A DNA stretch of 64,000 bases, from assembly GCA_965541585.1 (NCBI GenBank), contig CBEUCH010000002.1, positions 192,001 to 256,000 on the forward strand. The letters are read 5' to 3'. The DNA comes from an uncultured bacterium. Its GTDB lineage: Bacteria; Zixibacteria; MSB-5A5; UBA10806. Of the stretch, positions 43,616 to 58,242 are shown one piece after another. The notes beneath the pieces are model-generated. The model was not told where the DNA came from. It saw only the letters and a program-made list of their open reading frames with translations, and searched no databases. Position 1 is the first letter of the stretch. Each line of letters opens with the position of its first letter. The position numbers and the translations under genes are program-made.

Positions 43616-44200
43616 ATGGAAAAGAAAGCGAAATTGAAAGACGGCAGTGAGGTTCTCATCAGAGAGCTGAGAAAGGACGACATAGGCAGATCCCATGCCT
43701 TTTTTCGGGCACTTCCCAAAGAGGATAGGGCCTACCTTCGTGTCGATGTCACAAGGCGGGAAGTTGTTGAACGGAGAATCAAGGCCATGGAATCGGGAGA
43801 GGTCAGTCGGCTGGCAGCTCTTGTCGGGGATGAAATCGTGGCCGACGGATCTCTGGAACGAGAAATTCTGGACTGGAAAAAACATATAGCGGAATTGCGA
43901 CTGATTGTAGCACATTCATTTCAGCGCAAGGGACTTGGCCTCTTGATGGCTCGTGAGCTTTTTGGGCTGGCTGCCAGCCAGAAGGTTGAGGAGATCCTTG
44001 TGAGGATTATGGCGCCACAGGTCGGAGCCCTGAGCATTTTTAAAAGGCTTGGATTCCATCAGGATGCCATCCTGCACGATTACGTGAAGGATATTGACGG
44101 CAAAAAACAGGACCTTATTTTGATGCGGTGTGATCTGGAGTCACTCTGGCAAAAGTTGGGGGATTTTATGGATGATTTCGACTGGCAACGTTCCCGTTGA
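43616..44200 (+). CDS. GNAT family N-acetyltransferase
   Basis: LKDGSEVLIREL, FQRKGLG, FKRLGF. Confidence 0.85.
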   Translation: MEKKAKLKDGSEVLIRELRKDDIGRSHAFFRALPKEDRAYLRVDVTRREVVERRIKAMESGEVSRLAALVGDEIVADGSLEREILDWKKHIAELRLIVAHSFQRKGLGLLMARELFGLAASQKVEEILVRIMAPQVGALSIFKRLGFHQDAILHDYVKDIDGKKQDLILMRCDLESLWQKLGDFMDDFDWQRSR

Positions 44201-44284: not shown

Positions 44285-44312
44285 TTGACAAAAAACCATA
44301 TATGGTTATCTT
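44285..44312 (+). promoter_or_regulatory. sigma70-type promoter of the trp-aro operon
   Basis: TTGACA-N16-TATCTT; predicted +1 falls at or near the leader GTG/ATG (44319/44322). Confidence 0.65.
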
Positions 44313-44321
44313 GCATTTGTG

Positions 44322-44411
44322 ATGGCAGAGTTGAGAAATAGCATTCGTTTGTCCCGCTATTATTGGTGGTATGGATATAAATACGATCGGATAGCGGCTT
44401 CTGCCTATTAG
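44322..44411 (+). CDS. trpL: Attenuator leader peptide MAELRNSIRLSRYYWWYGYKYDRIAASAY (Tyr/Trp-rich)
   Basis: 29 codons, TAT TAT TGG TGG TAT GGA TAT AAA TAC at 44358-44384; directly upstream of a terminator and trpE; below the ORF track length cutoff. Confidence 0.88.
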   Translation: MAELRNSIRLSRYYWWYGYKYDRIAASAY

Positions 44412-44437
44412 CTGAGAATCGAAAAATCAATTAAGAG

Positions 44438-44469
44438 CCTGCTGTCCGACGAGGACAGCAGGTTTTTTT
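44438..44469 (+). terminator. Attenuator terminator (3:4 stem)
   Basis: CCTGCTGTCC-GACGA-GGACAGCAGG followed by T7. Confidence 0.9.
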
Positions 44470-44480
44470 GTGGAGAATTT

Positions 44481-45947
44481 ATGGATTTAACAGACATTTT
44501 GAAGAGTAACAGCAGAAAGGCCGTACTGGAGCCGTTGATTGCCGATCTTCCGGCTGATCTTGAAACGCCTGTTTCAGCGTTCTTGAAGCTGAGGCCTGTG
44601 GGGGCGAAGTTTCTGCTGGAGAGTGCGGACGGCATAGAACTAACCGGACGATATACGTTTATCGGCATCAGGCCGAGATTCAAAGTCAACATTTTCCGGG
44701 AAAAATCTGTAATTGTCTCTCCGGGGAGGACGGATGATTTCCTGCATTCGGGTATGGGAGATCCGTTTTCGGCCCTGCGACATATAACAAAGTCCATAAG
44801 CCTGGAATCGAATCCTTCAAGCCTGACTCTCTTAGGAGGGCTCGTCGGTCATATCAATTACGAGATGGTTGGCTTTTTCGAACCGCATCTCGGCCTGCTT
44901 GACGATTGTAACGAAACGCACCTGGCCAGCTTTTATATGGTGGATACTCTTCTTGTATTCGATCATTTCACGAGGCGGATGCAGGTCATCGCGCTGATTC
45001 CGAAGGGAAGTGATTCGGCAAAGGTAGAAGGAGAAAGGACAATCGATGAGATTTTGTCCGCGCTCAGATCGGATATAGAAATTCCACCAACCAAAGCGAC
45101 AGAATCAAACGAGAATTTCAGATCGAATTTCACGCAGGAGCGTTTTGAGAAGATTGTCGAGGATGCCAGAGGACATATACTAAAAGGAAATATATTTCAG
45201 GGCGTCCTTTCCCAGGCTCTGAAGGCCAGAATCGATATAGACAGTTTTCAGATTTACCGCGCCCTTAGAATGTTAAATCCCTCTCCTTATATGTATTACC
45301 TGGATATGGACGGCCTGGCGTTGATAGGGTCCTCGCCCGAAACCATGGTGAAATTAAGCGGAGACGTTGCCACGCTCCGTCCCATAGCGGGTACTCGTCC
45401 CAGAGGAAAGGATGAAACAGAGGATAGGCGGCTCGAGAAAGAGCTTCTATCCGATGACAAGGAGAGGGCCGAACATATCATGCTTGTCGATCTGGGGCGC
45501 AATGATCTTGGCAGAGCGTGCGAGTACGGGTCCGTGGCTGTCGACAAGCTGATGGAGGTCGAGCGTTTTTCGCACGTCATGCATTTAACCTCGACCGTCA
45601 CCGGCCGGCTGAAAAAGGGAAAGGACCAGTTCGATCTGTTCAGGTCGGCTTTTCCTGCAGGCACAGTCACAGGGGCACCGAAGATCAGGGCCATGGAGTT
45701 GATACGCCAGCTTGAAGGACAGCCCCGCGGACCATACGCCGGAAGCGTTGGATATTTTTCATTATCGGGGGATATGGATACGTGTATTACTATCAGGACC
45801 ATCATAATGAGGGGAAACGAGATTATTCTGCAAGCGGGCGCCGGAATCGTTGCGGATTCCAAACCTCAATTCGAATATCAGGAAACATTGAATAAACTCC
45901 AGGCTCTCAAAGCCGCCGTGTCAAACGCAGAAGGGGGATTGACATGA
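44481..45947 (+). CDS. trpE: Anthranilate synthase component I
   Basis: DLETPVSAFLKL, FLLES, NPSPYMY, PIAGTRPRG, EHIMLVDLGRND, PAGTVTGAPK. Confidence 0.95.
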   Translation: MDLTDILKSNSRKAVLEPLIADLPADLETPVSAFLKLRPVGAKFLLESADGIELTGRYTFIGIRPRFKVNIFREKSVIVSPGRTDDFLHSGMGDPFSALRHITKSISLESNPSSLTLLGGLVGHINYEMVGFFEPHLGLLDDCNETHLASFYMVDTLLVFDHFTRRMQVIALIPKGSDSAKVEGERTIDEILSALRSDIEIPPTKATESNENFRSNFTQERFEKIVEDARGHILKGNIFQGVLSQALKARIDIDSFQIYRALRMLNPSPYMYYLDMDGLALIGSSPETMVKLSGDVATLRPIAGTRPRGKDETEDRRLEKELLSDDKERAEHIMLVDLGRNDLGRACEYGSVAVDKLMEVERFSHVMHLTSTVTGRLKKGKDQFDLFRSAFPAGTVTGAPKIRAMELIRQLEGQPRGPYAGSVGYFSLSGDMDTCITIRTIIMRGNEIILQAGAGIVADSKPQFEYQETLNKLQALKAAVSNAEGGLT

Positions 45948-46513
45948 TAGTCTTTGTGGATAACTACGACTCGTTCATTTACAATATCGTTCAATACGTC
46001 GGACCGATCGACCCGGATCTAAAGGTTTTCCGCAATGATGAAATCGATCTCGAGGGTGTAAGAAAGCTCAGACCCCGCAAAATTATAATCTCGCCCGGCC
46101 CGGGTCATCCGGATGACGCAGGCATCTCGTGTGAGATTGTTAGAGCCTTTTTCGATAAGATTCCCATACTGGGCATTTGTCTGGGGCATCAGGCAATAGC
46201 CAGGGCGTTTGGCGGCGAAGTAGGAGAGGCTCCTGAACTTCTTCATGGGAAATCGTCGCAGGTCTTCCATAAAGCTATTGGAATCTTGAATGGCATGCCA
46301 AATCCGTTTACAGCCGGGCGATATCATTCGCTGGCTGTGTTCGAAGAGAAGCTGCCCGACTCGCTCGAGGTAATAGCCTATACATCGAAAGGCGACATCA
46401 TGGGGATAAAGCACCGCCAGTATCCCGTTTATGGATTGCAATTTCACCCTGAGTCGGTCCTTACCGAAGGCGGGGAGAAGATAATAGCAAACTTTCTGAA
46501 TGGTAACATATGA
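45944..46513 (+). CDS. trpG: Anthranilate synthase component II
   Basis: DNYDSF, SPGPG, GICLGHQ, RYHSL, QFHPES. Confidence 0.95.
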   Translation: MIVFVDNYDSFIYNIVQYVGPIDPDLKVFRNDEIDLEGVRKLRPRKIIISPGPGHPDDAGISCEIVRAFFDKIPILGICLGHQAIARAFGGEVGEAPELLHGKSSQVFHKAIGILNGMPNPFTAGRYHSLAVFEEKLPDSLEVIAYTSKGDIMGIKHRQYPVYGLQFHPESVLTEGGEKIIANFLNGNI

Positions 46514-47523
46514 GTAATAAGGAAATTGTATCAAAATTGATCGGCGGATCGGATCTGACCGCTGAGGAGACCGAACAATTTATGGGAGATATTGCCGACG
46601 GCAATCTTGCCCCCGCCCGGAGCGCCGCGTTTCTCACGGCGCTGGCAATCAAGGGAGAAACTCCCGAGGAGATAGCCGGATGCGCAAAGGCATTTCGTGA
46701 CAGGTCGCTTAAGGTACCGCATAATCAGAAGATGGTATTTGATTGTTGCGGCACCGGCGGCGACGGTTCGGGGAGCTTCAATATATCGACTGCCGTGGCA
46801 TTTGTTATGGCGGCCTGCGGTGTTCCGACTGCCAAGCATGGTAATCGCTCCATTTCGTCCCTTTGCGGCTCGGCTGATGTTCTGGAGGAATTGGGAATTA
46901 AGATCGGTCTCAAGCCGAAATCTGCGGCCACCTGTCTCGATGAGATAGGTATCTGTTTTATCTTTGCCCCATTTTACCATCCGGCGATGAAACACGCCGC
47001 GCCTGTCAGAAAGGAGCTTGGTTTTAGAACCGTTTTCAATCTTCTAGGCCCTCTGATGAATCCGGCGGATGCAACGCATCAAATAATAGGTGCGCCGTCT
47101 ATGGATATAGGACGGAAACTGGCTATGACTGCATTTCGCCTGAAGAGCGGTGAGATTCGGCTTTTGTATAACTCGGAGGGAATGGATGAACTGGTGCCGT
47201 TCGGGGAAAACTGGATAATATCGGCCGGTGAGAATGGTGTGGAAGAATGCAGATTAGATATTGCCTTTATCGGCCGCGCAGATAAATCGAGTATAAAAGG
47301 CGGTTCGGCAGGTGAGAACGCCCCCATCATAAAGAAAATATTCGAAGGGGAAAAATCACCCCGGAGAGATGCGGTCGTCCTTAACGCCGCTGTGGGATTG
47401 GTATTAACCGATACAGCATCGGATTACAAAGAGGGCATGAAGGTGGCGGAGGAAACCATTGACTCCGGAATGGCGGCCCTGAAGCTGGAAAAATTGATAG
47501 AACTCTCAAATAGACTCGTGTGA
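46510..47523 (+). CDS. trpD: Anthranilate phosphoribosyltransferase
   Basis: DCCGTGGDG, NIST, KHGNRS, GSADVLE. Confidence 0.95.
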   Translation: MSNKEIVSKLIGGSDLTAEETEQFMGDIADGNLAPARSAAFLTALAIKGETPEEIAGCAKAFRDRSLKVPHNQKMVFDCCGTGGDGSGSFNISTAVAFVMAACGVPTAKHGNRSISSLCGSADVLEELGIKIGLKPKSAATCLDEIGICFIFAPFYHPAMKHAAPVRKELGFRTVFNLLGPLMNPADATHQIIGAPSMDIGRKLAMTAFRLKSGEIRLLYNSEGMDELVPFGENWIISAGENGVEECRLDIAFIGRADKSSIKGGSAGENAPIIKKIFEGEKSPRRDAVVLNAAVGLVLTDTASDYKEGMKVAEETIDSGMAALKLEKLIELSNRLV

Positions 47524-48305
47524 TGTTGGAAAAGATAGTCTCAACAAAAAAGAGGTCGCTTGGCGCCATTGACAGGGGAAGATGGGAGGACCAACTTCGG
47601 TCGATGCTTTCCAATATTCCACCTGTTAATTCTTTTATCGATGCAATTACGGGGAAGGACAAACCGGCCCTGATTGCCGAGTTTAAAAGAAGATCGCCGT
47701 CCGCGGGGACTATCAATGATTCAGTCGACCCGGTCGAACAGGCCATTCTTTATGAGAAGGGTGGAGCATCGGCGGTTTCGGTTCTAACCGAGGAGGATTA
47801 TTTCGGCGGACGCCTCGATGATATCGGGAAGATAAAATCAGCAGTCGGGTTACCAATTCTGCGGAAGGATTTCATATTCGATCCTCTTCAGATATTGGAA
47901 GCCCGAGCGGCCGGAGCAGACGCAGTTTTGCTGATTGTCGGGATTCTGGATTTTGGAATATTAAAGACTCTTCTGGATGAGGCTGCACGCCATAATCTTG
48001 ACTGTCTTTGCGAGGTTCATTCGGAAGCCGAAATAGAGACGGCTCTCTCCTGCGGAGCGCGAATGATAGGCATAAACAACCGAGATTTAAACACTTTTGA
48101 AATCAACCTTGATGTAACAAAACGTCTGCGTCCGGAGATACCGGAAAATATCACGGTAGTTTCTGAGAGCGGTATTCATACGCCGGAGGACGTTGCGTTT
48201 GTCCGGCGCTGTGGTGTGGACGCCATACTTGTAGGCACCGAACTGATGAAGGCGCGCGATGTCTCAGGGAAGATTGCGGAGATAATGGGATGTCGGCCAA
48301 GGTAA
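47520..48305 (+). CDS. trpC: Indole-3-glycerol phosphate synthase
   Basis: IAEFKRRSPSAG, LRKDFI, GINNRDL, SESGI. Confidence 0.95.
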   Translation: MMLEKIVSTKKRSLGAIDRGRWEDQLRSMLSNIPPVNSFIDAITGKDKPALIAEFKRRSPSAGTINDSVDPVEQAILYEKGGASAVSVLTEEDYFGGRLDDIGKIKSAVGLPILRKDFIFDPLQILEARAAGADAVLLIVGILDFGILKTLLDEAARHNLDCLCEVHSEAEIETALSCGARMIGINNRDLNTFEINLDVTKRLRPEIPENITVVSESGIHTPEDVAFVRRCGVDAILVGTELMKARDVSGKIAEIMGCRPR

Positions 48306-48868
48306 AAATTTGCGGCATCACAAATCTCGAGGACGCGCTGCTCTCTCATACGCTCGGCGCGGACATGCTGGGCATGATATTTGCCAGAAGTCCAAGGAGA
48401 ATATCTATTTCTACGGCAGCTGATATCGCTTTACGGCTTTCGGGAAAGGTCGCTCTGGTCGGCGTATTCTCAGATCCTGACGATCCTCAGATTGGTGAAG
48501 TTTGTGAAAGGATCAAGCTGGATATGTTACAGATCTATTTCGGTGAAAACGTCAACGGATTTCCCAGCTATCCGCTTCCCATTTTACCCTCATACTGGGT
48601 CAAAGAGAAAACGGATATTTCAAAGATCGAATTAGCCGGATCACTGCTCGATTTCAAGAGGGCTCCTCGCTTGCTCGGGAAATGCCGATCTGAGAATATC
48701 GATATGAGCGAAGCGATCCTTGCCGGAGGGCTGCACAGTGGAAATGTGGACAGTATTTTAAAAACCCTTAAGCCCTTCGGAGTGGACGTGGCACGGGGGG
48801 TTGAGAGCGAACCGGGGAAAAAAGATAAGGCCAAGCTCGAGCAATTCATCCGGAAGGTGAAATCATGA
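48290..48868 (+). CDS. trpF: Phosphoribosylanthranilate isomerase
   Basis: [26 protein letters not shown]. Confidence 0.9.
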
Positions 48869-50052
48869 AAGTCCCCGATCGATTCGGTTTCTTCGGTCCC
48901 TACGGCGGCCGTTACGTTCCCGAGACCTTGATATCTGCTCTGGACGACCTTGAACAAGCCTTTGATAAATATAGAAAAGACGGGGATTTCATTTCCGAGC
49001 TTAACGGTCTTCTTAAGGACTTTTCCGGCAGGCCGACTCCGCTTTACGAGGCGGCCAATATCTCGCGACGCTGGGGAGCGAAAATCTATCTTAAACGTGA
49101 AGATCTGAACCACACCGGCGCGCACAAGATAAACAACACGCTGGGCCAGGCGCTGCTTGCCAGAAGGCTGGGGAAAACGAGAATAATCGCGGAAACCGGC
49201 GCGGGTCAGCATGGAGTCGCAACGGCATCGGCCTGTTCTCTATTAGGACTAAAATGTATCGTTTATATGGGAATAATCGATGCCGCCCGGCAGAAGCCCA
49301 ACCTTTTGAGAATGCAGATGATGGGAGCCGAGGTGGTGGAGGTAAAATCGGGATCGGGCACGCTCAAAGACGCCTGCAACGAGGCTATACGTGATTGGGT
49401 GGCTAACGTCGACGACACGCATTATATCATCGGCTCAACCGTGGGGCCCCATCCCTATCCTCTGCTGGTAAGGCATTTTCAAAAGATTATCGGGGAAGAG
49501 ACCCGACGTCAGATTATAGCCAAAGAAAACAGGCTTCCCGATTATGTATTCGCTTGTGTGGGAGGCGGCTCAAACGCTCTGGGTATATTTCATGGTTTTT
49601 TGAAAAATAATGGTGTCGGTCTGGTAGGAGTCGAATCCGCCGGGCATGGCCTGAGAAGCGGGCGTCACGCGGCCACATTGGCCCGCGGAAAGCCGGGTGT
49701 ACTTCATGGTTCGTTGTCGTATCTGTTGCAGGATGACGATGGTCAAATTGTTCCCACGGAAACACAGGCGGCCGGTCTCGATTACCCTGGGGTTGGGCCC
49801 GAACACAGTTACTTAAAAGATATCGGAAGAGTCCGGTACCTGTCGGTTACGGATAAACAGGCGGTCGATGCCTGCTTTGAGCTTTCCCGTTACGAAGGGA
49901 TAATCCCGGCGTTGGAATCATCGTACGCTCTGGCGGCCGTTAAGCGACTCGCAAAGGGCGAGGGAAAAGGGAAGCTGATCGTGGTGAATCTCTCCGGAAG
50001 GGGAGATAAAGACCTCGATAGCATAAAGGATTATGAAAACGGCAATAAGTAG
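48865..50052 (+). CDS. trpB: Tryptophan synthase beta chain
   Basis: [45 protein letters not shown]. Confidence 0.97.
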
Positions 50053-50827
50053 AAAACTCGGCAAACGAGGTGGGCGAAAGGCGCTGGTGCCTTACCTGAC
50101 CTGTGGCTTTCCCGATATGAACAGCTTTGAAAGTCTGGCTCTTTCTGTATGCGACGCGGGAGTGGATATGATTGAAATCGGGCTCCCGTTCTCAGATCCG
50201 CTCGCCGATGGGCCGACAATACAATATTCGTCGAAGACGTCGCTGGATAACGGGTTTAACCTCGAAAGAGGTTTCGCTTCCATCAAGCGGATCGCCGGAA
50301 GCACCGAAATACCGATTATCGTTATGACCTACCTGAATATCATCAGCGCCATGGGGGAGACAAAATTCTTTCGGCAATGCAGAAAAGCGGGTATCTCGGG
50401 ATTGGTGATACCTGATCTTCCCGCCGATCTATCCCATGATATCGGGAGGGCGTGTAGAGAGTTTTGTATAGATCTGGCATTATTGGTTGCCCCAACGACC
50501 CCGGTCGAGAGGATTAAAAAGATCGCCGGGCAATCGAGGGGTTTTCTATATCTGGTTTCAGTAAAAGGGACAACAGGAAAGCGAGATCGTTTTCCGCCCG
50601 GGACACTGTCGTTTATACGGAGAGTAAAAAAGCTTTCGCCTGTTCCCGTACTTGTCGGCTTCGGGATTTCCAGTCCCGCCATGGCCGCCATGGCGGCACG
50701 CTACTCAGATGGTGTCATAATTGGCAGCGCCCTGATTGATATCATTCGAAACAACGGTGATCCGCGCAAAGCATCGATACAATTGAAATCGTTTCTTCAA
50801 TCCATAGAAAAGGAGATGAATTCTTGA
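50033..50827 (+). CDS. trpA: Tryptophan synthase alpha chain
   Basis: [31 protein letters not shown]. Confidence 0.95.
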
Positions 50828-51192
50828 GAACAAGAGGTGTAAGAGGGGCAATAGTCGTGAAGGAGAATACACGCGAGGCGATTTTCGAAGCCACCGTGGA
50901 GCTTCTGGAGGAAATACTAAAGAAAAACTCGATTCCCACCGAGGAAATCGCGTCGATATTTTTGACGGCGACCACCGACGTTGATGCGGAATTCCCGGCC
51001 TATGCCGCTCGTCGCATGGGTTTGACCTCGGTTCCTCTCCTATGCGCTCGGGAGATGGAAGTCCCCGGCGCTATGAAAGGCGTTATCAGAGCTTTGATAC
51101 ATTTTAATACCGAGAAAAAACAATCGGAAATTATAAATCGATACCTGGGAGAGGCGCAGAAGCTTCGTCCCGACCAAGGAGTAGAAAATTGA
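50824..51192 (+). CDS. aroH: Chorismate mutase, AroH (Bacillus-type) class
   Basis: RGVRGAI, FPAYAAR, EMEVPG, YLGEAQKLRPD. Confidence 0.92.
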   Translation: MRTRGVRGAIVVKENTREAIFEATVELLEEILKKNSIPTEEIASIFLTATTDVDAEFPAYAARRMGLTSVPLLCAREMEVPGAMKGVIRALIHFNTEKKQSEIINRYLGEAQKLRPDQGVEN

Positions 51193-52205
51193 TGATCGTA
51201 GTAATGGAGAAAAAGGCCACCGCCAGGCAGATTGGGGCGGTGATAACGAAGATCCAATCGCAAGGTTGCCAGGCGCATATCTCGGAGGGGACGGAGAAAA
51301 CCATTATAGGCGTAATGGGCAACGGTTCTGGGCTTGACAAATCAAAATTGCGGATACTGGACGGCGTGGAAGATATTATACCGATTCTCAAGCCGTACAA
51401 GCTGACATCGCGAGAATTCAAGTCGGAGCAGACAGTGGTCACGGTCAATGGCGCGCGAATAGGCGGAACAAAGATAGCAGTAATTGCCGGTCCCTGCGCG
51501 GTTGAATCGTACGAGCAAACGCTGGCGGCTGCGAAGGCGGCAAAGGCCCATGGTGCAGGGTTGATGCGCGGGGGAGCCTTTAAACCTCGCACGTCGCCTT
51601 ATTCATTTCAAGGGAAGGGAAAGGAGGGGCTGGAGATCCTGGCTCAGGTGAAAAGAGAAGTGGGGTTACCCATAGTGACGGAGGTTATTTCCCCGGAAGA
51701 CGTGGAACTTGTGGCGCAATATGTCGATGTCCTTCAGATCGGAGCCAGGAACATGCAGAATTTCGCTCTTCTGGAAGTGGTGGGGAAAAGCGATAAACCC
51801 GCGCTGCTCAAGAGGGGGATGATGTCCACTGTAGAGGAGTTGTTGATGTCGGCGGAATATCTTCTTTCCAACGGCAATCGAAATGTTATTTTGTGCGAGA
51901 GGGGCATCCGGACGTTCGCAAAAATCACCCGGAACACTCCCGATCTCGCGGCCATACCCGTTATAAAGAAACTATCGCACCTCCCGGTAATTTTCGATCC
52001 GTCTCATTCTACAGGTAGAAGAGATCTTATTCTTCCCATGTCGGCGGCAGCGATAGCCTGTGGAGCGGACGGTATAATTGTCGAGATACATCCTGCACCC
52101 GAGGAAGCGCTATGCGACGGCGAACAGAGCCTTACGTTCGATGCATTCGCTGAAATGATGAAATCTCTATCGCGCCTTGCGGGCGCTGTGGAGAGGAGCC
52201 TGTGA
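51189..52205 (+). CDS. aroF: DAHP synthase type I-beta with N-terminal ferredoxin-like regulatory domain
   Basis: IAGPCAVES, GGAFKPRTSPYSFQG, GARNMQNF, CERGIRTF, DPSH. Confidence 0.95.
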   Translation: MMIVVMEKKATARQIGAVITKIQSQGCQAHISEGTEKTIIGVMGNGSGLDKSKLRILDGVEDIIPILKPYKLTSREFKSEQTVVTVNGARIGGTKIAVIAGPCAVESYEQTLAAAKAAKAHGAGLMRGGAFKPRTSPYSFQGKGKEGLEILAQVKREVGLPIVTEVISPEDVELVAQYVDVLQIGARNMQNFALLEVVGKSDKPALLKRGMMSTVEELLMSAEYLLSNGNRNVILCERGIRTFAKITRNTPDLAAIPVIKKLSHLPVIFDPSHSTGRRDLILPMSAAAIACGADGIIVEIHPAPEEALCDGEQSLTFDAFAEMMKSLSRLAGAVERSL

Positions 52206-53068
52206 GCAGACAGCCGGCCCATACCGTCGGAATGCTTGGCCTGGGTCAGATGGGGGGTTCGCTGGCCATGGCTCTGAAATCCAGCAGGCAATCCTGGACC
52301 GTTTCAGGTTACGATATCAAAAGATCGCTTACAAAGCGGGCAAAACAGGATGGGATTATAGATAAGGCAAATGTTTCCGAGGTAGATCTGATCGAGGGAT
52401 CGCAGACGGTCGTCCTGGCATTACCTGTCAATATTATTCTGGAGGTTATGGCACGCCATAAACGTATGCTTTCGACAAAAACGCTGGTTGTGGATCTGGG
52501 AAGCGTGCGCGGTTCCATCCAGAGGGTCTCATCCAGATTGAGAATGAAAAACCATGTCGGTATTCATCCCATTTGCGGCACCGCCCTTAGGGGAGGATCG
52601 GCGTGGAATGGGAGATTATACGAAGGGGCCTCCTGTTTCGTCTTTTCGAATGAGTCGACTAATGCCAGAGCTATAACCTTTGCGAGAAAACTTATAAGGG
52701 CTACAGGCGGCCAGCCTGAGACTATCGATTTTCATAATCATGATCGCGCCTTTGCCGTAACAAGTGGTCTTCCACATATTCTTGCATATTCCTTAATGAA
52801 AGTGAGGACCGGTTCACGATATATCCCGGTTGAATTGGAGGGCCCGAGTTTTGCGGGGGCTACCAGAGTTTCAGCCAGCGACCCTGTAATGGCGGGGCAG
52901 ATGCTGTATCATAATCGTGATAATCTGCTGAAGGCGGTCTCGAGGATTGAAAAGAATATCGTAAGAATCAAAGAACTTCTTTCAAAGGGCGATCTTGAGA
53001 AGCTTATTCTGACGCTGGAGAGTTATGGGAAAACGAGTCGAAGGTCGGTTAAAGCTCCCCGGGGATAA
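52202..53068 (+). CDS. tyrA: Prephenate/arogenate dehydrogenase
   Basis: GLGQMGGSLA, DLGSV, HPICG, HDRAFAVTSGLPH, TRVSAS. Confidence 0.88.
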   Translation: MSRQPAHTVGMLGLGQMGGSLAMALKSSRQSWTVSGYDIKRSLTKRAKQDGIIDKANVSEVDLIEGSQTVVLALPVNIILEVMARHKRMLSTKTLVVDLGSVRGSIQRVSSRLRMKNHVGIHPICGTALRGGSAWNGRLYEGASCFVFSNESTNARAITFARKLIRATGGQPETIDFHNHDRAFAVTSGLPHILAYSLMKVRTGSRYIPVELEGPSFAGATRVSASDPVMAGQMLYHNRDNLLKAVSRIEKNIVRIKELLSKGDLEKLILTLESYGKTSRRSVKAPRG

Positions 53069-54290
53069 ATCGATATCGCATCGCGCCCTTATACTGGCGG
53101 CGATATCGGACGGGGAATGCACAATTGAGAACCTGTCGCCGGGTCTGGATACTGAGTCAACGGCAAAATGCCTGAGCGACCTGGGAGTGAAAATGTGCAC
53201 GAAGAATGGAAAGCGCCGGATTTCCGGATTGGGTTTCCGCAATTTCAAAATCCCCGCTGCAATCCTCAACTGTGGTAATTCGGGGACGACTCTCAGGCTT
53301 CTTACAGGTTTACTGGCGGGCTCCAACATTGAGGCCGTTCTCGACGGGGATGAATCTTTAAGGCGCCGTCCGATCAATAGGGTCATAGATCCCTTGAAAA
53401 ATATGGGAGCCGATATCGAAACCACCGATGGCAATGACGGATGCCCCGTAAGAGTTCATGGCATGCAGCTTAAGGGCGTCTCTCAAATATTGAATGTACC
53501 GAGCGCGCAGGTGAAAACGGCCGTCTTGCTCGCGGGGCTTTTAGCCGAAGGAACGACTGAATTGATACAATCCGCAGACACGAGAGACCATACCGAGAGA
53601 ATTCTATCACATCTCGATGTCGATATAAAAACGGATTACGGGATAATAACTCTTAAACCGCCTGAGAACCTCAAACCGTTCGATGTCAGCGTTCCTGCAG
53701 ATCCATCCTCAGCCGCGTTCCCTGTTGTGGCCGCTCTATTGTTGCCTGGTTCCGAATTGACTCTGTATGATCTTTTACTGAATCCAGGTCGCATTGGATA
53801 TATGCGAATATTAGAGTCAATGGGGGCCGATATTGAAGTCGTGAACAAGAATAAACAATATGGTGAGACGGTTGGTGAGATTGTCGTTAAATCTTCATTA
53901 TTAAAAACCATAGACGTGGAGGCAGGCGAGGCACCATCATATATAGATGAAGCCCCGATCCTGGCTCTGGCAGCAAGCCAGGCGGCGGGACAAAGTGTAT
54001 TTCGGGGACTTTCCGAGTTGAGAGTTAAGGAATCGGACAGGTTAACGAATATTATGAGAATCATCAACATTATGGGAGGAAAAGCGTCAATCAACGAAGA
54101 CGACCTGGTTATAGAAGGTCCGTCGAGGTTGAAATATTACGATGGAGATTGTTATGGAGATCACAGGCTGGCAATGATGATTGAGACAGGTAACATTATT
54201 TCGTCCGGAGCAATGAGCGAGAAATATGGCGACGTGGCGGAGGTTTCATTCAAAGGTTTCTATGATACTATGAAGGGAGCGCTGATTTAA
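53025..54290 (+). CDS. aroA: EPSP synthase
   Basis: PGDKSISHRAL, GNSGTT, SAQVK, RDHTER, ELRVKESDR, DHRLAM. Confidence 0.95.
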   Translation: MGKRVEGRLKLPGDKSISHRALILAAISDGECTIENLSPGLDTESTAKCLSDLGVKMCTKNGKRRISGLGFRNFKIPAAILNCGNSGTTLRLLTGLLAGSNIEAVLDGDESLRRRPINRVIDPLKNMGADIETTDGNDGCPVRVHGMQLKGVSQILNVPSAQVKTAVLLAGLLAEGTTELIQSADTRDHTERILSHLDVDIKTDYGIITLKPPENLKPFDVSVPADPSSAAFPVVAALLLPGSELTLYDLLLNPGRIGYMRILESMGADIEVVNKNKQYGETVGEIVVKSSLLKTIDVEAGEAPSYIDEAPILALAASQAAGQSVFRGLSELRVKESDRLTNIMRIINIMGGKASINEDDLVIEGPSRLKYYDGDCYGDHRLAMMIETGNIISSGAMSEKYGDVAEVSFKGFYDTMKGALI

Positions 54291-55088
54291 ATGAAACCGC
54301 CCCGATTATATGGCCTTCTGGGGCATAATATATCGTATTCGCTGTCGCCGTATATGTTCAATACCATATTTAGGAAGCGGGGGATGAACAGTCTGTATAT
54401 GCCTTTTGATATAAAGCGAAACCATCTCCGGAAATTTACCGAGTCCGTGAGATTACTGGGAATCTCGGGTTTCAATGTAACGATTCCGCATAAGCTACAA
54501 GTAGCCAGATATCTCGATGACCTCGATAATTCCGCAAAGTCGGTTGGTGCGGTTAATCTCGTTATCTTTAGGAAAGGCAAACTTGTAGGATATAACGTTG
54601 ATCTGCATGGAATAAAAGGGACAGTAGAGAACCATCTGAAATTTCCGCTTAATAATCGTCGGGTGGTCTTGATCGGGGCCGGAGGTGCGGCGAGAGCTGT
54701 CATCGAATACCTTCGTAAGTCAAAACCGGGATCGGTCATTCTGACGAATAGAACGATAAAACGAGCAAGAGAGCTGCAGGATATATCGCGGGTACCAATT
54801 GCAAAGATCGTGCGTCTTGAAAAACTGAGCCGATGCATTGAAGATCTCGGTGTCGATATAGTCATAAATGCCACACCTGTGTCGACGCCCTCTATTTTGA
54901 AAAGTATCCCTTCCGGATTGAGGATATTCGACATGTCTTACAAACCGTCTGAATTTCCATACGGAAAGAGCCGTATCCGTTGCGACGGTAAATATATGCT
55001 GGCGGCTCAGGCGGCTCGCAGTTTTTCAATACTCTGTGGGGTAAAGATACCGGCTGATGAAATGTTCAAATTAATCAGGGGGAAATGA
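54291..55088 (+). CDS. aroE: Shikimate dehydrogenase
   Basis: SLSP, NVTIPHK, GAVN, GAGGAARA, INATP. Confidence 0.92.
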   Translation: MKPPRLYGLLGHNISYSLSPYMFNTIFRKRGMNSLYMPFDIKRNHLRKFTESVRLLGISGFNVTIPHKLQVARYLDDLDNSAKSVGAVNLVIFRKGKLVGYNVDLHGIKGTVENHLKFPLNNRRVVLIGAGGAARAVIEYLRKSKPGSVILTNRTIKRARELQDISRVPIAKIVRLEKLSRCIEDLGVDIVINATPVSTPSILKSIPSGLRIFDMSYKPSEFPYGKSRIRCDGKYMLAAQAARSFSILCGVKIPADEMFKLIRGK

Positions 55089-55089
55089 A

Positions 55090-56220
55090 TTGCGTTATCT
55101 TAGTTCCGGTGAATCTCACGGGCCTGCGTTGACCGTAATTATCGAAGGTCTACCGGCGGGCATCAAGATAGATCGGCGTCTGATTACAAAGGCGCTCAGT
55201 AACAGGCAAAAGGGATTTGGGCGGGGAGACAGGATGAAAATCGAATCCGACAGGCCCGAGTTCCTCTCCGGATTGATGCGCGGGAAAACAACAGGCAGTC
55301 CGCTTACTATTATGATACGCAATCGCGATTGGGATAACTGGAAAGATAGAAAACACCCTAAAAAGACGGTTCCCAGGCCCGGTCATGCAGACCTCACGGG
55401 TATGTTAAAATACGATACCGATGATATTCAGATGATAATCGAGAGAGCGTCGGCGAGGGAGACGGCTGCAAAAGTGGCGGCAGGAAGCATCGCGAAAATT
55501 TATCTTCAAAGTTTTGGCATTAAAATAATTGGCCATACTGTTGGGTTGGGAGGAGTTTTCGTCGATGATGTCCCGGACGACTACGATCGAATAAAGGCAT
55601 TGGTTGAGAAATCGGATCTCCGATGTGCAGATAGAAACTCGGCTGCCGAGATGAAGAAAAGAATTAAGAAGGCTATGGATAAAGGAGACACGGTAGGGGG
55701 GGCGGTAGAGGTCAGGGTATTCGCAGTCCCGCCGGGGATAGGAAGCTACGTGCAGTGGGATCGTCGTCTTGACGGGCGTCTGGCACAGGCCTTGATGTCA
55801 ATACCCTCTGTTAAGGCTGTCGAGCTGGGGGAGGGGTTTGCCAATGCAGCGCGCCCGGGAAGCGACGTTCATGACCCTGTATATTACTCGTCGAAGACCG
55901 GATATTTCCGCAAGAGTAACCGCGCCGGCGGGATCGAGGGGGGAATGTCTAACGGGGAGACGATTCTCGTCAGGGCCTACTTAAAGCCGATATCGACCTT
56001 GCGCAATCCGCTTGATTCCGTTGATACAAAGAATCACAGGGCGGTAAAAGCACCTTATGTCAGATCGGATACGGCCGTTATACCGGCGGCGAGCGTAGTG
56101 GCCGAGGCGGCGACAGCCTGGACTATCGCGACCTGCTTTGCTGAAAAGTTTGGCGGCGATTCTATCGAAGAATCGCTGAGAAACTACAAAGGTTACCTCA
56201 AACAGATTAAAAAACGATGA
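55090..56220 (+). CDS. aroC: Chorismate synthase
   Basis: GESHG, PRPGHAD, ERASARETA, NRAGGIEGGMSNG, RSD. Confidence 0.95.
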   Translation: MRYLSSGESHGPALTVIIEGLPAGIKIDRRLITKALSNRQKGFGRGDRMKIESDRPEFLSGLMRGKTTGSPLTIMIRNRDWDNWKDRKHPKKTVPRPGHADLTGMLKYDTDDIQMIIERASARETAAKVAAGSIAKIYLQSFGIKIIGHTVGLGGVFVDDVPDDYDRIKALVEKSDLRCADRNSAAEMKKRIKKAMDKGDTVGGAVEVRVFAVPPGIGSYVQWDRRLDGRLAQALMSIPSVKAVELGEGFANAARPGSDVHDPVYYSSKTGYFRKSNRAGGIEGGMSNGETILVRAYLKPISTLRNPLDSVDTKNHRAVKAPYVRSDTAVIPAASVVAEAATAWTIATCFAEKFGGDSIEESLRNYKGYLKQIKKR

Positions 56221-56732
56221 ACGATAAAAGGAACATAATCATATGCGGCTTTATGGGCACCGGTAAGAGCGTGGTCGGAAAGGCCGTTTCATTAGCTCTC
56301 GGTTTTGATTTTGTGGATACCGATAGTCTCGTTGAGAACAGGTGCGGAAAGACCATTGCAGAAATATTCCATGACGATGGAGAGGAATACTTTCGAGATC
56401 GGGAGAAGGAGATTCTATCTCATTTGCCGGTGCACAATACTGTCATAGCTGCAGGGGGAGGGATGATTATCGATCGGGGAAATTACAGACGGCTTTCAGG
56501 ATTGGGCCTGATGATACTTCTAACGGCGTCGGTGGATACCATATGCAAAAGGATTGGGAATAATGGTTCCCGACCGCTGCTATCCGGCGAAAACTTGAAT
56601 GAAAAGGTGCAGGGTTTACTTTCTCTCAGGCAGCCTGTTTATGACAGAATTGAATATAGGGTTAATACCGATCGAATGAATGTTGCCGATGTTTGCGACG
56701 CCGTGACAAAAATATATCGGGAAAACGCATGA
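56217..56732 (+). CDS. aroK: Shikimate kinase
   Basis: GFMGTGKS, DTD, GEEYFRDRE, GGG, RPLL. Confidence 0.93.
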   Translation: MNDKRNIIICGFMGTGKSVVGKAVSLALGFDFVDTDSLVENRCGKTIAEIFHDDGEEYFRDREKEILSHLPVHNTVIAAGGGMIIDRGNYRRLSGLGLMILLTASVDTICKRIGNNGSRPLLSGENLNEKVQGLLSLRQPVYDRIEYRVNTDRMNVADVCDAVTKIYRENA

Positions 56733-57805
56733 AAACAGAAATAACTGATTCTGATATAATGGTTGGCAGGGACCTGTTCAGCAGCTTGAAGGATATTATT
56801 GACTTCACTTCTTATTCATCATCTTTCTTGCTCACGGACAACAATATATTTACGGTGTATTCTGATAAGATAGGGAGGATCTTCGGCGAGGAAATGGAAA
56901 GCGGAAGATATTTATCCCTTCCCGCTGGTGAAAAAAGTAAAACGCTACAATTTGTGGGCCGGATAGGTGAGAAGATGCTGTTGTCGGGATTGGATAGGCG
57001 TTCGGTTCTTATAGCTCTGGGCGGCGGTGTGATCACTGATATCGGAGGGCTGGCTGCATCGATGTACATGCGGGGTATTGATTTCGTAAACATACCGACC
57101 ACGCTTGTAGGTCAAATCGACGCTTCCCTGGGTGGGAAATGCGGAGTTAATCTAAAATCCGCCAAGAACATCATGGGGCTGTTCTCTCTGCCCCGGAAAA
57201 TTATTATCGATCCCGGCTTTCTGGATACCTTAACGAGTCAGCAGATATGTGATGGCATGGTGGAGCTTCTGAAGATCGCCGCTGTGGCTGATTCCGATCT
57301 GTTCAGCAGGCTGGAATCTATTCAGTGCGATCTTGAGGGCGTGAATGATTCTATAAAGCTGGAGTTGATAGAAAGAGCCGCCCGATTGAAACTAACTGTT
57401 GTCGACAAGGATTTTCGGGAGAACGGTTACCGGATGGTCCTCAATTTCGGGCATACTACGGGACACGCGATGGAGGCGTGCGCCGGATACGGAAAATTCA
57501 GCCATGGCCAGGCCGTAGGCGTCGGAATTTTAGTGGCGGCCGAGCTATCCGATATCATCTGCCGGTTCAACGCCGGGGATAAAGGGAGATTGAAGAATGC
57601 GGTGAAATCGCTTCTGGAAAAGACGAACATCCCGGGTATTGGTGGCGGCGAGTTGTGGGATAGGATCCAATATGATAAGAAGAAGGACTTGGGAGACGTC
57701 AAATTCACGCTTCTGGAAGACCTGGGAAAGCCGCAAATTAAGACTGTGTCAAGGGATCAATTCTTGGCTGCCTATGATACAGTTTGTAAGGAGCTTTCAA
57801 GATGA
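56729..57805 (+). CDS. aroB: 3-dehydroquinate synthase
   Basis: GEKSK, GGGVITD, PTTL, DASLGGK, LNFGHT.GHA.E; ATGA overlap with aroK sets the start at 56729. Confidence 0.93.
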   Translation: MKTEITDSDIMVGRDLFSSLKDIIDFTSYSSSFLLTDNNIFTVYSDKIGRIFGEEMESGRYLSLPAGEKSKTLQFVGRIGEKMLLSGLDRRSVLIALGGGVITDIGGLAASMYMRGIDFVNIPTTLVGQIDASLGGKCGVNLKSAKNIMGLFSLPRKIIIDPGFLDTLTSQQICDGMVELLKIAAVADSDLFSRLESIQCDLEGVNDSIKLELIERAARLKLTVVDKDFRENGYRMVLNFGHTTGHAMEACAGYGKFSHGQAVGVGILVAAELSDIICRFNAGDKGRLKNAVKSLLEKTNIPGIGGGELWDRIQYDKKKDLGDVKFTLLEDLGKPQIKTVSRDQFLAAYDTVCKELSR

Positions 57806-58242
57806 AAAAAGTCTTCGTTATTCACGGACCGAACCTCAATTTACTGGGAAAAAGGGAACCCGATATCTATGGCGGCTCAACGCTTGATGAAATAAACGAG
57901 CGCATATCCCGAGAGGCGAAAAGAATCGGGATCGAATGCGAGTTTTTCCAGAGCAATATAGAGGGGGAACTGGTTGATATCGTCCAGAAGGCAGGGGAGA
58001 AGGCTGACGGCATCATAATAAATCCTGCCGGCTATAGTCATACGTCGGTGGCGCTGCTCGACGCTCTTAAGGCTGTCGATATTCCCAGAGTCGAGGTTCA
58101 TCTTTCGAACATCTTCGCGCGCGAAGAGTTTCGACGCACCTCGTTGACGGCATCCGGGTGCACCGGATCGATATCCGGCTTGGGAGTTGAAGGCTATCTG
58201 CTGGCCCTGCGTTATATTTCAGTCCTTTTGGATCGCGACTGA
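57802..58242 (+). CDS. aroQ: Type II 3-dehydroquinate dehydratase
   Basis: HGPNLNLLGKREP.IYG, QSNIEG, INPAGYSHTS, EVHLSN. Confidence 0.95.
   Translation: MKKVFVIHGPNLNLLGKREPDIYGGSTLDEINERISREAKRIGIECEFFQSNIEGELVDIVQKAGEKADGIIINPAGYSHTSVALLDALKAVDIPRVEVHLSNIFAREEFRRTSLTASGCTGSISGLGVEGYLLALRYISVLLDRD

Follow-up and report, generated by a model that had tools for sequence, protein, structure and literature searches.

A predicted tyrosine- and tryptophan-responsive transcription attenuator upstream of a fused trp, tyrA and shikimate operon in Zixibacteria

Introduction

Attenuation as a principle is textbook knowledge, and the established attenuators respond to Trp, Phe, His, Leu, Thr/Ile or Ile/Leu/Val. 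A single leader can combine codons for several end products of a branched pathway, as is the case for thrL with Thr and Ile. Likewise, the accessible text of PMC8079986 presents ilvL (Ile, Leu and Val) as a multivalent leader of a branched pathway.

In E. coli, trpL (Rfam RF00513) is described in the available sections of PMC4007540 and PMC11802643 as a leader ORF with tandem Trp codons, followed by RNA regions 1-4 and a terminator before trpE. Mixed aromatic codons including Tyr precede a DAHP synthase gene in C. glutamicum, where the aroR leader of aroF reads Phe-Tyr-Phe. This leader has no Trp codons, is separate from trpL and, according to the accessible parts of PMC11802643 and PMC4046766 citing Neshat 2014, responds to Phe and not to Tyr. 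Because aroR carries a Tyr codon and is reported to be unresponsive to Tyr, the presence of such a codon does not guarantee control by Tyr. Song et al. (2005, Table 7, PMC1173090) list predicted attenuators upstream of tyrA clusters, among them the aro and trp supraoperon of Desulfovibrio vulgaris, and Shewanella aroF is labelled 'Attenuator sensing tyr-tRNA' in a table of PMC2659441. In the accessible parts of both sources, attenuation upstream of tyrA or aroF is predicted without a stated leader peptide or control codons. The available portions of PMC3082878, PMC12125101, PMC2965389 and PMC13602947 contain nothing on Tyr leaders. In open-access full text, a body of literature with few subscription papers and with supplements outside it, we found no Tyr+Trp leader, no attenuator from Zixibacteria and no tested Tyr-responsive attenuator.

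Leaderless leader peptides, trpE leaders included, are reported for Deinococcus deserti, Streptomyces lividans and mycobacteria (PMC4007540, PMC8079986, bioRxiv 10.1101/834739, each in its accessible part), with a start codon at or adjoining +1. The supplement of PMC4007540 holds a table of 14 leaders, and the available text of PMC11857589 describes a first hairpin that blocks initiation on a leaderless leader. Here we analyzed a window of 64,000 nucleotides, the whole stretch studied, from an uncultured member of the phylum Zixibacteria. Features of the window are on its plus strand unless stated otherwise.

Results

The window contains 16 abutting or overlapping genes in the order trpEGDCFBA-aroH-aroF-tyrA-aroAECKBQ. 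The overlapping ORFs of trpE, trpG, trpD, trpC, trpF, trpB and trpA (44481..50827) are followed by genes for an aroH-type chorismate mutase, a DAHP synthase with a ferredoxin-like domain (aroF) and prephenate dehydrogenase (tyrA; 50824..53068), and by aroA, aroE, aroC, aroK, aroB and aroQ (53025..58242). The operon is thus as the first-pass annotation had described it, namely shikimate, Trp and Tyr genes with no pheA among the 16 annotated genes. Prephenate dehydratase (PF00800) had no match anywhere in the studied genome, which is 98% complete; a genome with full shikimate, Trp and Tyr genes and without PF00800 points to Phe auxotrophy or to another dehydratase. TrpR, TRAP and T-box elements were equally without a match in this 98% complete genome, with positive controls. 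An Rfam scan returned no leader family, Trp_leader RF00513 included, up to an E value of 10; its three matches, at E 5.7-7.8, were to other families and were taken as chance. The studied genome's own family is mostly without a trpE match (1/13).

A leader ORF (44319..44411) lies upstream of trpE and comprises 30 codons when counted from a GTG at 44319, or 29 from the ATG at 44322 that follows immediately in the same frame; it ends with TAG at 44409-44411. The peptide is the one given previously (29 aa, 44322-44411), with 6 Tyr, 2 Trp and 0 Phe residues and a cluster in the order Tyr-Tyr-Trp-Trp-Tyr-Gly-Tyr-Lys-Tyr. With 7 Tyr/Trp codons in 9, this cluster is the densest among 40,637 small ORFs (15-50 aa, ATG/GTG starts, six frames) of the whole 3.5 Mb genome, in which two others reach 6. 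The peptide matched 0 NCBIfam families.

A promoter scan placed the predicted operon promoter where it had been proposed, with a -35 box TTGACA at 44285..44290 and a -10 box TATCTT at 44307..44312. Separated by 16 nt, the two boxes score 10/12 and rank top of 4 sites (shuffle mean 2.0). From the spacing, +1 is predicted at about 44319. TTGACA with a TAnnnT-type box was present in 67/67 first leaders compared, and the spacer was 16 nt in 65/67. Unlike these leaders, the TTGACA..TAnnnT sites of the studied genome as a whole favour a spacer of 17 nt (152 sites) over 16 nt (108 sites).

The GTG lies 6 nt and the ATG 9 nt past the -10 box. The first ATG/GTG of the 67 leaders was located 6-10 nt past the box in 35, which leaves no room for a Shine-Dalgarno site, 11-14 nt in 4, 15-31 nt in 25 (18 of them with a Shine-Dalgarno-like motif) and further away in 3; the family contains both leaderless-type and Shine-Dalgarno-led starts. 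Since the two closest leaders, those of G007 and G109, have ATG at the position of GTG 44319, the GTG is a likelier start than ATG 44322, and sequence comparison suggests that translation probably begins there and yields 30 aa. Of the earlier proposal of a GTG/ATG start, its position near the predicted +1 is retained and the ATG becomes the less likely codon. With +1 predicted from spacing, there is a good chance that the start is leaderless. In the studied genome, 21 ATGs of long ORFs sit 6-9 nt past a TTGACA-16/17-TAnnnT site and 0 sit at 0-5 nt, so that leaderless genes appear to exist in it. As a side observation, the start codon region pairs with 44398-44410 in the ribosome-free fold, a pairing that would keep ribosomes from starting again on a completed leader RNA.

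The sequence itself, its fold and duplex energies confirmed three mutually exclusive helices and a run of seven T at the coordinates proposed in the first pass. Region 1 (44354..44361), with CCGCTAT at 44354-44360, pairs with region 2 and would act as an anti-antiterminator. Region 2 (44387..44400), the 5' arm of the antiterminator, lies within the leader ORF and reads CGGATAGCGGCT at 44388-44399; its core GRYRGYGG is kept across the family. Region 3 (44435..44448), with AGCCTGCTGTCCG at 44436-44448, is common to antiterminator and terminator. The intrinsic terminator hairpin 3:4 (44433..44469; -25.1 kcal/mol) ends in T7 at 44463-44469 and is located between the leader ORF and trpE, the first gene. 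Duplex energies were -22.9, -22.8 and -10.7 kcal/mol for 2:3, 3:4 and 1:2, respectively. The fold of 44310-44480, which includes 1:2 and 3:4, reached -56.9 kcal/mol (z -4.34), and 0/200 shuffles were equally stable. A simple terminator scan gave the terminator hairpin on the minus strand only; the plus-strand hairpin and its U run come from the fold and the duplex energies. Translational attenuation was considered and rejected because the ribosome-binding site of trpE (GGAG, 44472..44475) falls outside the terminator hairpin.

Ribosome stalling was modelled by equilibrium folding of transcripts ending at 44452-44458, with 9, 12 or 15 nt, counted from the A site, masked by the ribosome. With a ribosome on any codon of the Tyr-Tyr-Trp-Trp-Tyr series (44358..44372; Tyr14, Tyr15, Trp16, Trp17 and Tyr18, numbered from the GTG), the probability of 2:3 in the nascent RNA was 1.00. 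Tyr20 (44376..44378) is probably an extra control codon, its outcome varying with the footprint (1.00 for a footprint of 9-12 nt, 0.08-0.60 for one of 15 nt). For Tyr22 the probability was at most 0.60, and it was 0 for Tyr30 and for the stop codon. The first pass had taken Y-Y-W-W-Y-x-Y-x-Y as the control codons; in the model, Tyr14, Tyr15, Tyr18 and probably Tyr20 can serve as such, Tyr22 hardly and Tyr30 not, so that of 6 Tyr codons only three or four are placed to act. In these partial transcripts at equilibrium, a stall on a control codon frees region 2 and a ribosome at the stop codon covers it. When no ribosome is present, 1:2 has become the dominant helix by 44458, and the start codon lies in paired sequence. 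In full-length RNA at equilibrium, the terminator wins for every ribosome position (-25.1 vs -21.6 kcal/mol). Because it does so in every case, read-through must be kinetic, and we infer from the modelling that antitermination depends on folding kinetics.

A TrpE search over 285 genomes of the phylum gave 101 matches at E ≤1e-100, of which 55 were above 430 bits. The conservation sample consisted of 53 trpE regions and the studied window; G216 and G075, with partial trpE matches, were left out, and five members (G241, G227, G061, G240 and G105) had too little upstream DNA. A Trp-containing leader ORF, the region 2 core and a terminator were present in 49/49 readable trpE loci. For covariation, 42 distinct region 2/3/4 triplets were taken from 65/71 leaders, the other 6 having no located region 3/4. 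The antiterminator 2:3 was 95.5% paired with 29 two-sided changes (shuffle mean 6.2) and the terminator 3:4 was 97.6% paired with 39 (shuffle mean 14.6); in both cases 0/2000 shuffles reached the observed value, which supports the helices and at the same time overstates the support, because the shuffled sets take no account of how closely the leaders are related and a consensus was used to find the cores. The core windows and the anchors of the regions had been placed by hand, with two anchors adjusted by eye. The alignment of trpE upstream regions that had been proposed as a check thus came out with conserved Tyr/Trp codons and covarying 2:3 and 3:4 stems.

In five genomes, two full leader-plus-terminator units stand in tandem within 500 nt 5' of trpE (G195, L076; G196, L082; G208, L081; G209, L063; G192, L100). 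The tandem units are of the Tyr/Trp type in four genomes and Trp-only twice in G192, the second unit of which was left out of the counts. Such an arrangement may make the response sharper or broader. The phylum also has a second, more distantly related TrpE group (~40-45% identity), which directly follows an upstream coding gene and has no leader in 10 loci (L011-L020).

Operons were sorted into classes according to the genes they contain, and the codon counts refer to the stretch 12-42 nt 5' of region 2. G065, G066, G108 and G128 were left out as their operons end at a contig end. G007, with a truncated aroH and an unproven trp link, was left out of the codon counts and kept in the tree, start-codon, covariation, pairing and alignment sets; at its locus (L136, 797-889, in operon orientation) only the last 31 codons of aroH are left and an unrelated ORF lies upstream, as would follow from a rearrangement or an assembly error. 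Leaders of trp+tyr operons had a mean of 3.05 Tyr and 2.82 Trp codons (39 leaders, 35 genomes, 8 families), with at least 2 Tyr codons in 38/39. In trp operons ending at aroF, which lack aroH and tyrA, the means were 0.67 Tyr and 3.33 Trp (9 leaders). PF02153 matched in 126 genomes, from which 36 tyrA loci were selected by eye; 20 of these began with aroH and had readable DNA upstream. The same element, with almost only Tyr codons, was found 5' of aroH-(aroF)-tyrA operons in 18 of these 20 loci (L103-L105, L108-L110, L112, L114, L115, L117-L119, L122, L123, L126-L128 and L130); no leader was found at the aroH-first loci of G039 and G040 (2/20). These 18 leaders, on operons without trp genes, had means of 5.06 Tyr and 0.17 Trp.

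Both split forms occur together, one of each, in three genomes. In G187 and in G127, the trp operon has a Trp-only leader and aroH-aroF-tyrA a Tyr-only one; the cores of G187 read ARNWWWWSI 5' of trpE and SRYYRYYYYYN 5' of aroH. On the TrpE+TrpG tree, linkage to tyrA changes 3 times, and Tyr content agrees in 2.6/3 independent pairs on average, with 0 pairs opposite (sign test p 0.25). On the AroH+TyrA tree, linkage to trp changes 5 times, and Trp content agrees in 5/5 pairs (p 0.0625); here the sister of the studied genome, G050, has no trpE match and a Tyr-only leader. Exceptions were G028 (tyrA in the operon, 0 Tyr in the core), G182 and G183 (2 Tyr kept, tyrA absent), G128 (2 Tyr kept in the trp leader though its tyrA has its own Tyr leader) and G095 (only 2 Tyr 5' of aroH-tyrA). 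The G095 core (L115, 5' of aroH) reads RYCVGCCGY, with 2 Tyr and 3 Cys, as if Tyr had changed to Cys with the pairing kept. Leader codons track operon content; therefore, sensing of both Tyr and Trp is likely.

The absence of Phe codons had earlier been matched to the absence of pheA from the operon. That part of the match which concerns the genome holds, as there is no PF00800 match in it, and the part concerning operon membership does not. In 21/21 pheA-positive trp+tyr genomes the PF00800 match is on another contig or more than 100 kb away, yet 18/21 of their leaders have a Phe codon in the core, vs 4/18 where no match was found; the explanation 'no Phe because pheA is outside the operon' was accordingly rejected. 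In tyr-only cores a Phe codon was present in 3/4 leaders with pheA in the genome vs 1/14 without a match. Within one genus, G217 and G218, with pheA, have SFYFWW, and G219, in which none was found, has SYNYWW. Phe codons thus appear to follow pheA anywhere in the genome and not operon membership, a link that is weak on the trees (2.4/5 and 2.8/6 pairs agree, 0.1-0.2 disagree and the rest show no difference).

Discussion

Every feature of leader-peptide attenuators that can be examined in sequence is found at this locus. The leader, antiterminator and terminator almost certainly form a ribosome-mediated transcription attenuator, which is very probably responsive to Trp and likely responsive to Tyr as well. 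Our best explanation, which we consider likely, is that it would let transcription through when Tyr-tRNA or Trp-tRNA is scarce. The dual Tyr/Trp attenuation claimed in the first-pass annotation finds support in conservation, in covariation and in split operons with Trp-only and Tyr-only leaders.

Transcription would start at about 44319, and a ribosome would load on the 5' GUG without a Shine-Dalgarno site. With Tyr and Trp plentiful, it would reach the stop codon and cover region 2, so that 3:4 could form and terminate at the U run. A stall on Tyr14, Tyr15, Trp16, Trp17, Tyr18 and probably Tyr20 would leave the ribosome covering region 1 only, allowing 2:3 to form ahead of the synthesis of region 4 and transcription to run on through the 16 genes. 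In the absence of translation, 1:2 would form and the terminator would win.

The element is best read as working like the trp attenuator of E. coli, with the same predicted logic (PMC4007540 and PMC11802643, in their accessible parts), yet it falls outside the Rfam family RF00513. Unlike in trpL, the Trp codons have Tyr codons on either side, region 2 lies within a 30-codon ORF and the leader is predicted to be leaderless; unlike in the E. coli trp system, the genome has no TrpR match and the operon adds shikimate and Tyr genes. From thrL and ilvL it differs in its Tyr+Trp specificity and in having relatives with single-specificity forms on split operons. The leaderless leaders of Deinococcus deserti, Streptomyces lividans and mycobacteria belong to other phyla, with no Tyr leader among those in the accessible texts. 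As for the novelty suggested earlier, no Tyr+Trp leader was found in the open-access literature, whereas leaderless leaders and a mixed aromatic leader had already been published, as the accessible parts of those sources describe.

A variant of this explanation, and compatible with it, is a graded integrator, in which limitation for one amino acid would give partial read-through and full induction would need both. The finished RNA favours the terminator over the antiterminator, a stall must outlast the passage of the polymerase, and five genomes have two attenuator units in tandem, all of which would suit graded integration. However, in the model a stall on any one codon from Tyr14 to Tyr18 is enough to free 2:3 fully, and single-specificity leaders exist with identical geometry, so we regard this variant as rather unlikely.

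It is less probable still that the element is an ordinary Trp attenuator, with little or no response to Tyr and with Tyr codons kept for 1:2 pairing or by descent. The region 2 core needs a CCRCTAT-like partner, which in frame is Arg-Tyr or Tyr-Tyr; the sequence with which region 1 has to pair, GATAGYGG, makes TAT the favoured codon, and the predicted 1:2 fold places Tyr14, Tyr18 and Tyr22 in base pairs. Moreover, 6 Tyr codons persist across the 9 trp-only leaders, and the accessible accounts of aroR in C. glutamicum provide a precedent for a Tyr codon without a Tyr response. However, among mostly unpaired core codons Tyr still accounts for 50/126 (40%) in trp+tyr, 65/94 in tyr-only and 2/20 in trp-only leaders, the Tyr share in long ORFs being 3.9%, and TAT and TAC are both used in the family (98:25); because of this, pairing alone fails to explain the Tyr codons. 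In addition, 5/9 trp-only leaders have no Tyr in the core and keep region 2, and tyrA operons are headed by Tyr-only leaders built on the same RNA frame. On the sequence comparison, codons for both products lie in the effective window and appear to be under selection, in line with a response to both Tyr-tRNA and Trp-tRNA.

Very improbable is a TnaC-like arrest peptide sensing free Trp or Tyr, or a TRAP-like RNA-binding protein, with tRNA charging not the signal. Although the peptides of most relatives end in D-S/G-G, this motif is the translation of region 2, which is read in other frames in 11/71 leaders including the studied one, and a peptide-level role of D-S-G was therefore rejected; the remaining peptide is not conserved, the logic is biosynthetic and the genome has no TRAP match. 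A constitutive terminator of the upstream acetyltransferase-like gene (43616-44200, same strand) combined with a chance ORF can be dismissed for practical purposes, since conservation and covariation refute it, a promoter lies between that gene and the leader ORF, the element is conserved amid unrelated upstream contexts and the ORF is the densest in Tyr/Trp of all 40,637. The upstream ORF itself, outside the element, has only weak acetyltransferase (GNAT-like) matches at E ~1e-4.

Across the phylum, we lean towards the reading that one chassis has been reused, with control codons rewritten to suit the genes: Trp-only on trp, Tyr-only on aroH-tyrA, Tyr+Trp where the two are fused, and Phe added with pheA elsewhere. 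Its proposed parts are a TTGACA-16 promoter, an often leaderless ORF, a GRYRGYGG antiterminator arm and a CCCRCYRYC terminator. If true, genuine attenuation by Tyr-tRNA sensing would have its first family here, one that would also offer a natural series for the gain and loss of a multivalent sensor with operon fusion and fission. Since matched Trp-only, Tyr-only and Tyr+Trp versions occur naturally, Tyr sensing and OR-gate logic are directly testable. The leader codons could serve as a regulatory read-out of amino acid needs in the phylum, with no TrpR, TRAP or T-box match here, and the leaders as small ready-made parts for aromatic amino acid biosensors.

A pattern scan of contigs found at least 119 loci, at least 22 of them with trpE just downstream; the other 97 among the matches listed, without trpE just downstream, were treated as chance. 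Among the matches listed, the same element occurs 5' of trpE in records titled Zixiibacteriota or Ignavibacteria, and the closest TrpE, 77% identical over a short stretch, is from a Candidatus Zixiibacteriota record. A tblastn search with TrpE against plasmids gave only matches below 60% identity. Two Thermodesulfobacteriota records (L204 and L148, about 10000, minus strand) have the same RNA element with an FFSYYWW leader 5' of trpEG and shikimate genes, and the L204 cluster includes a chorismate mutase-prephenate dehydratase gene.
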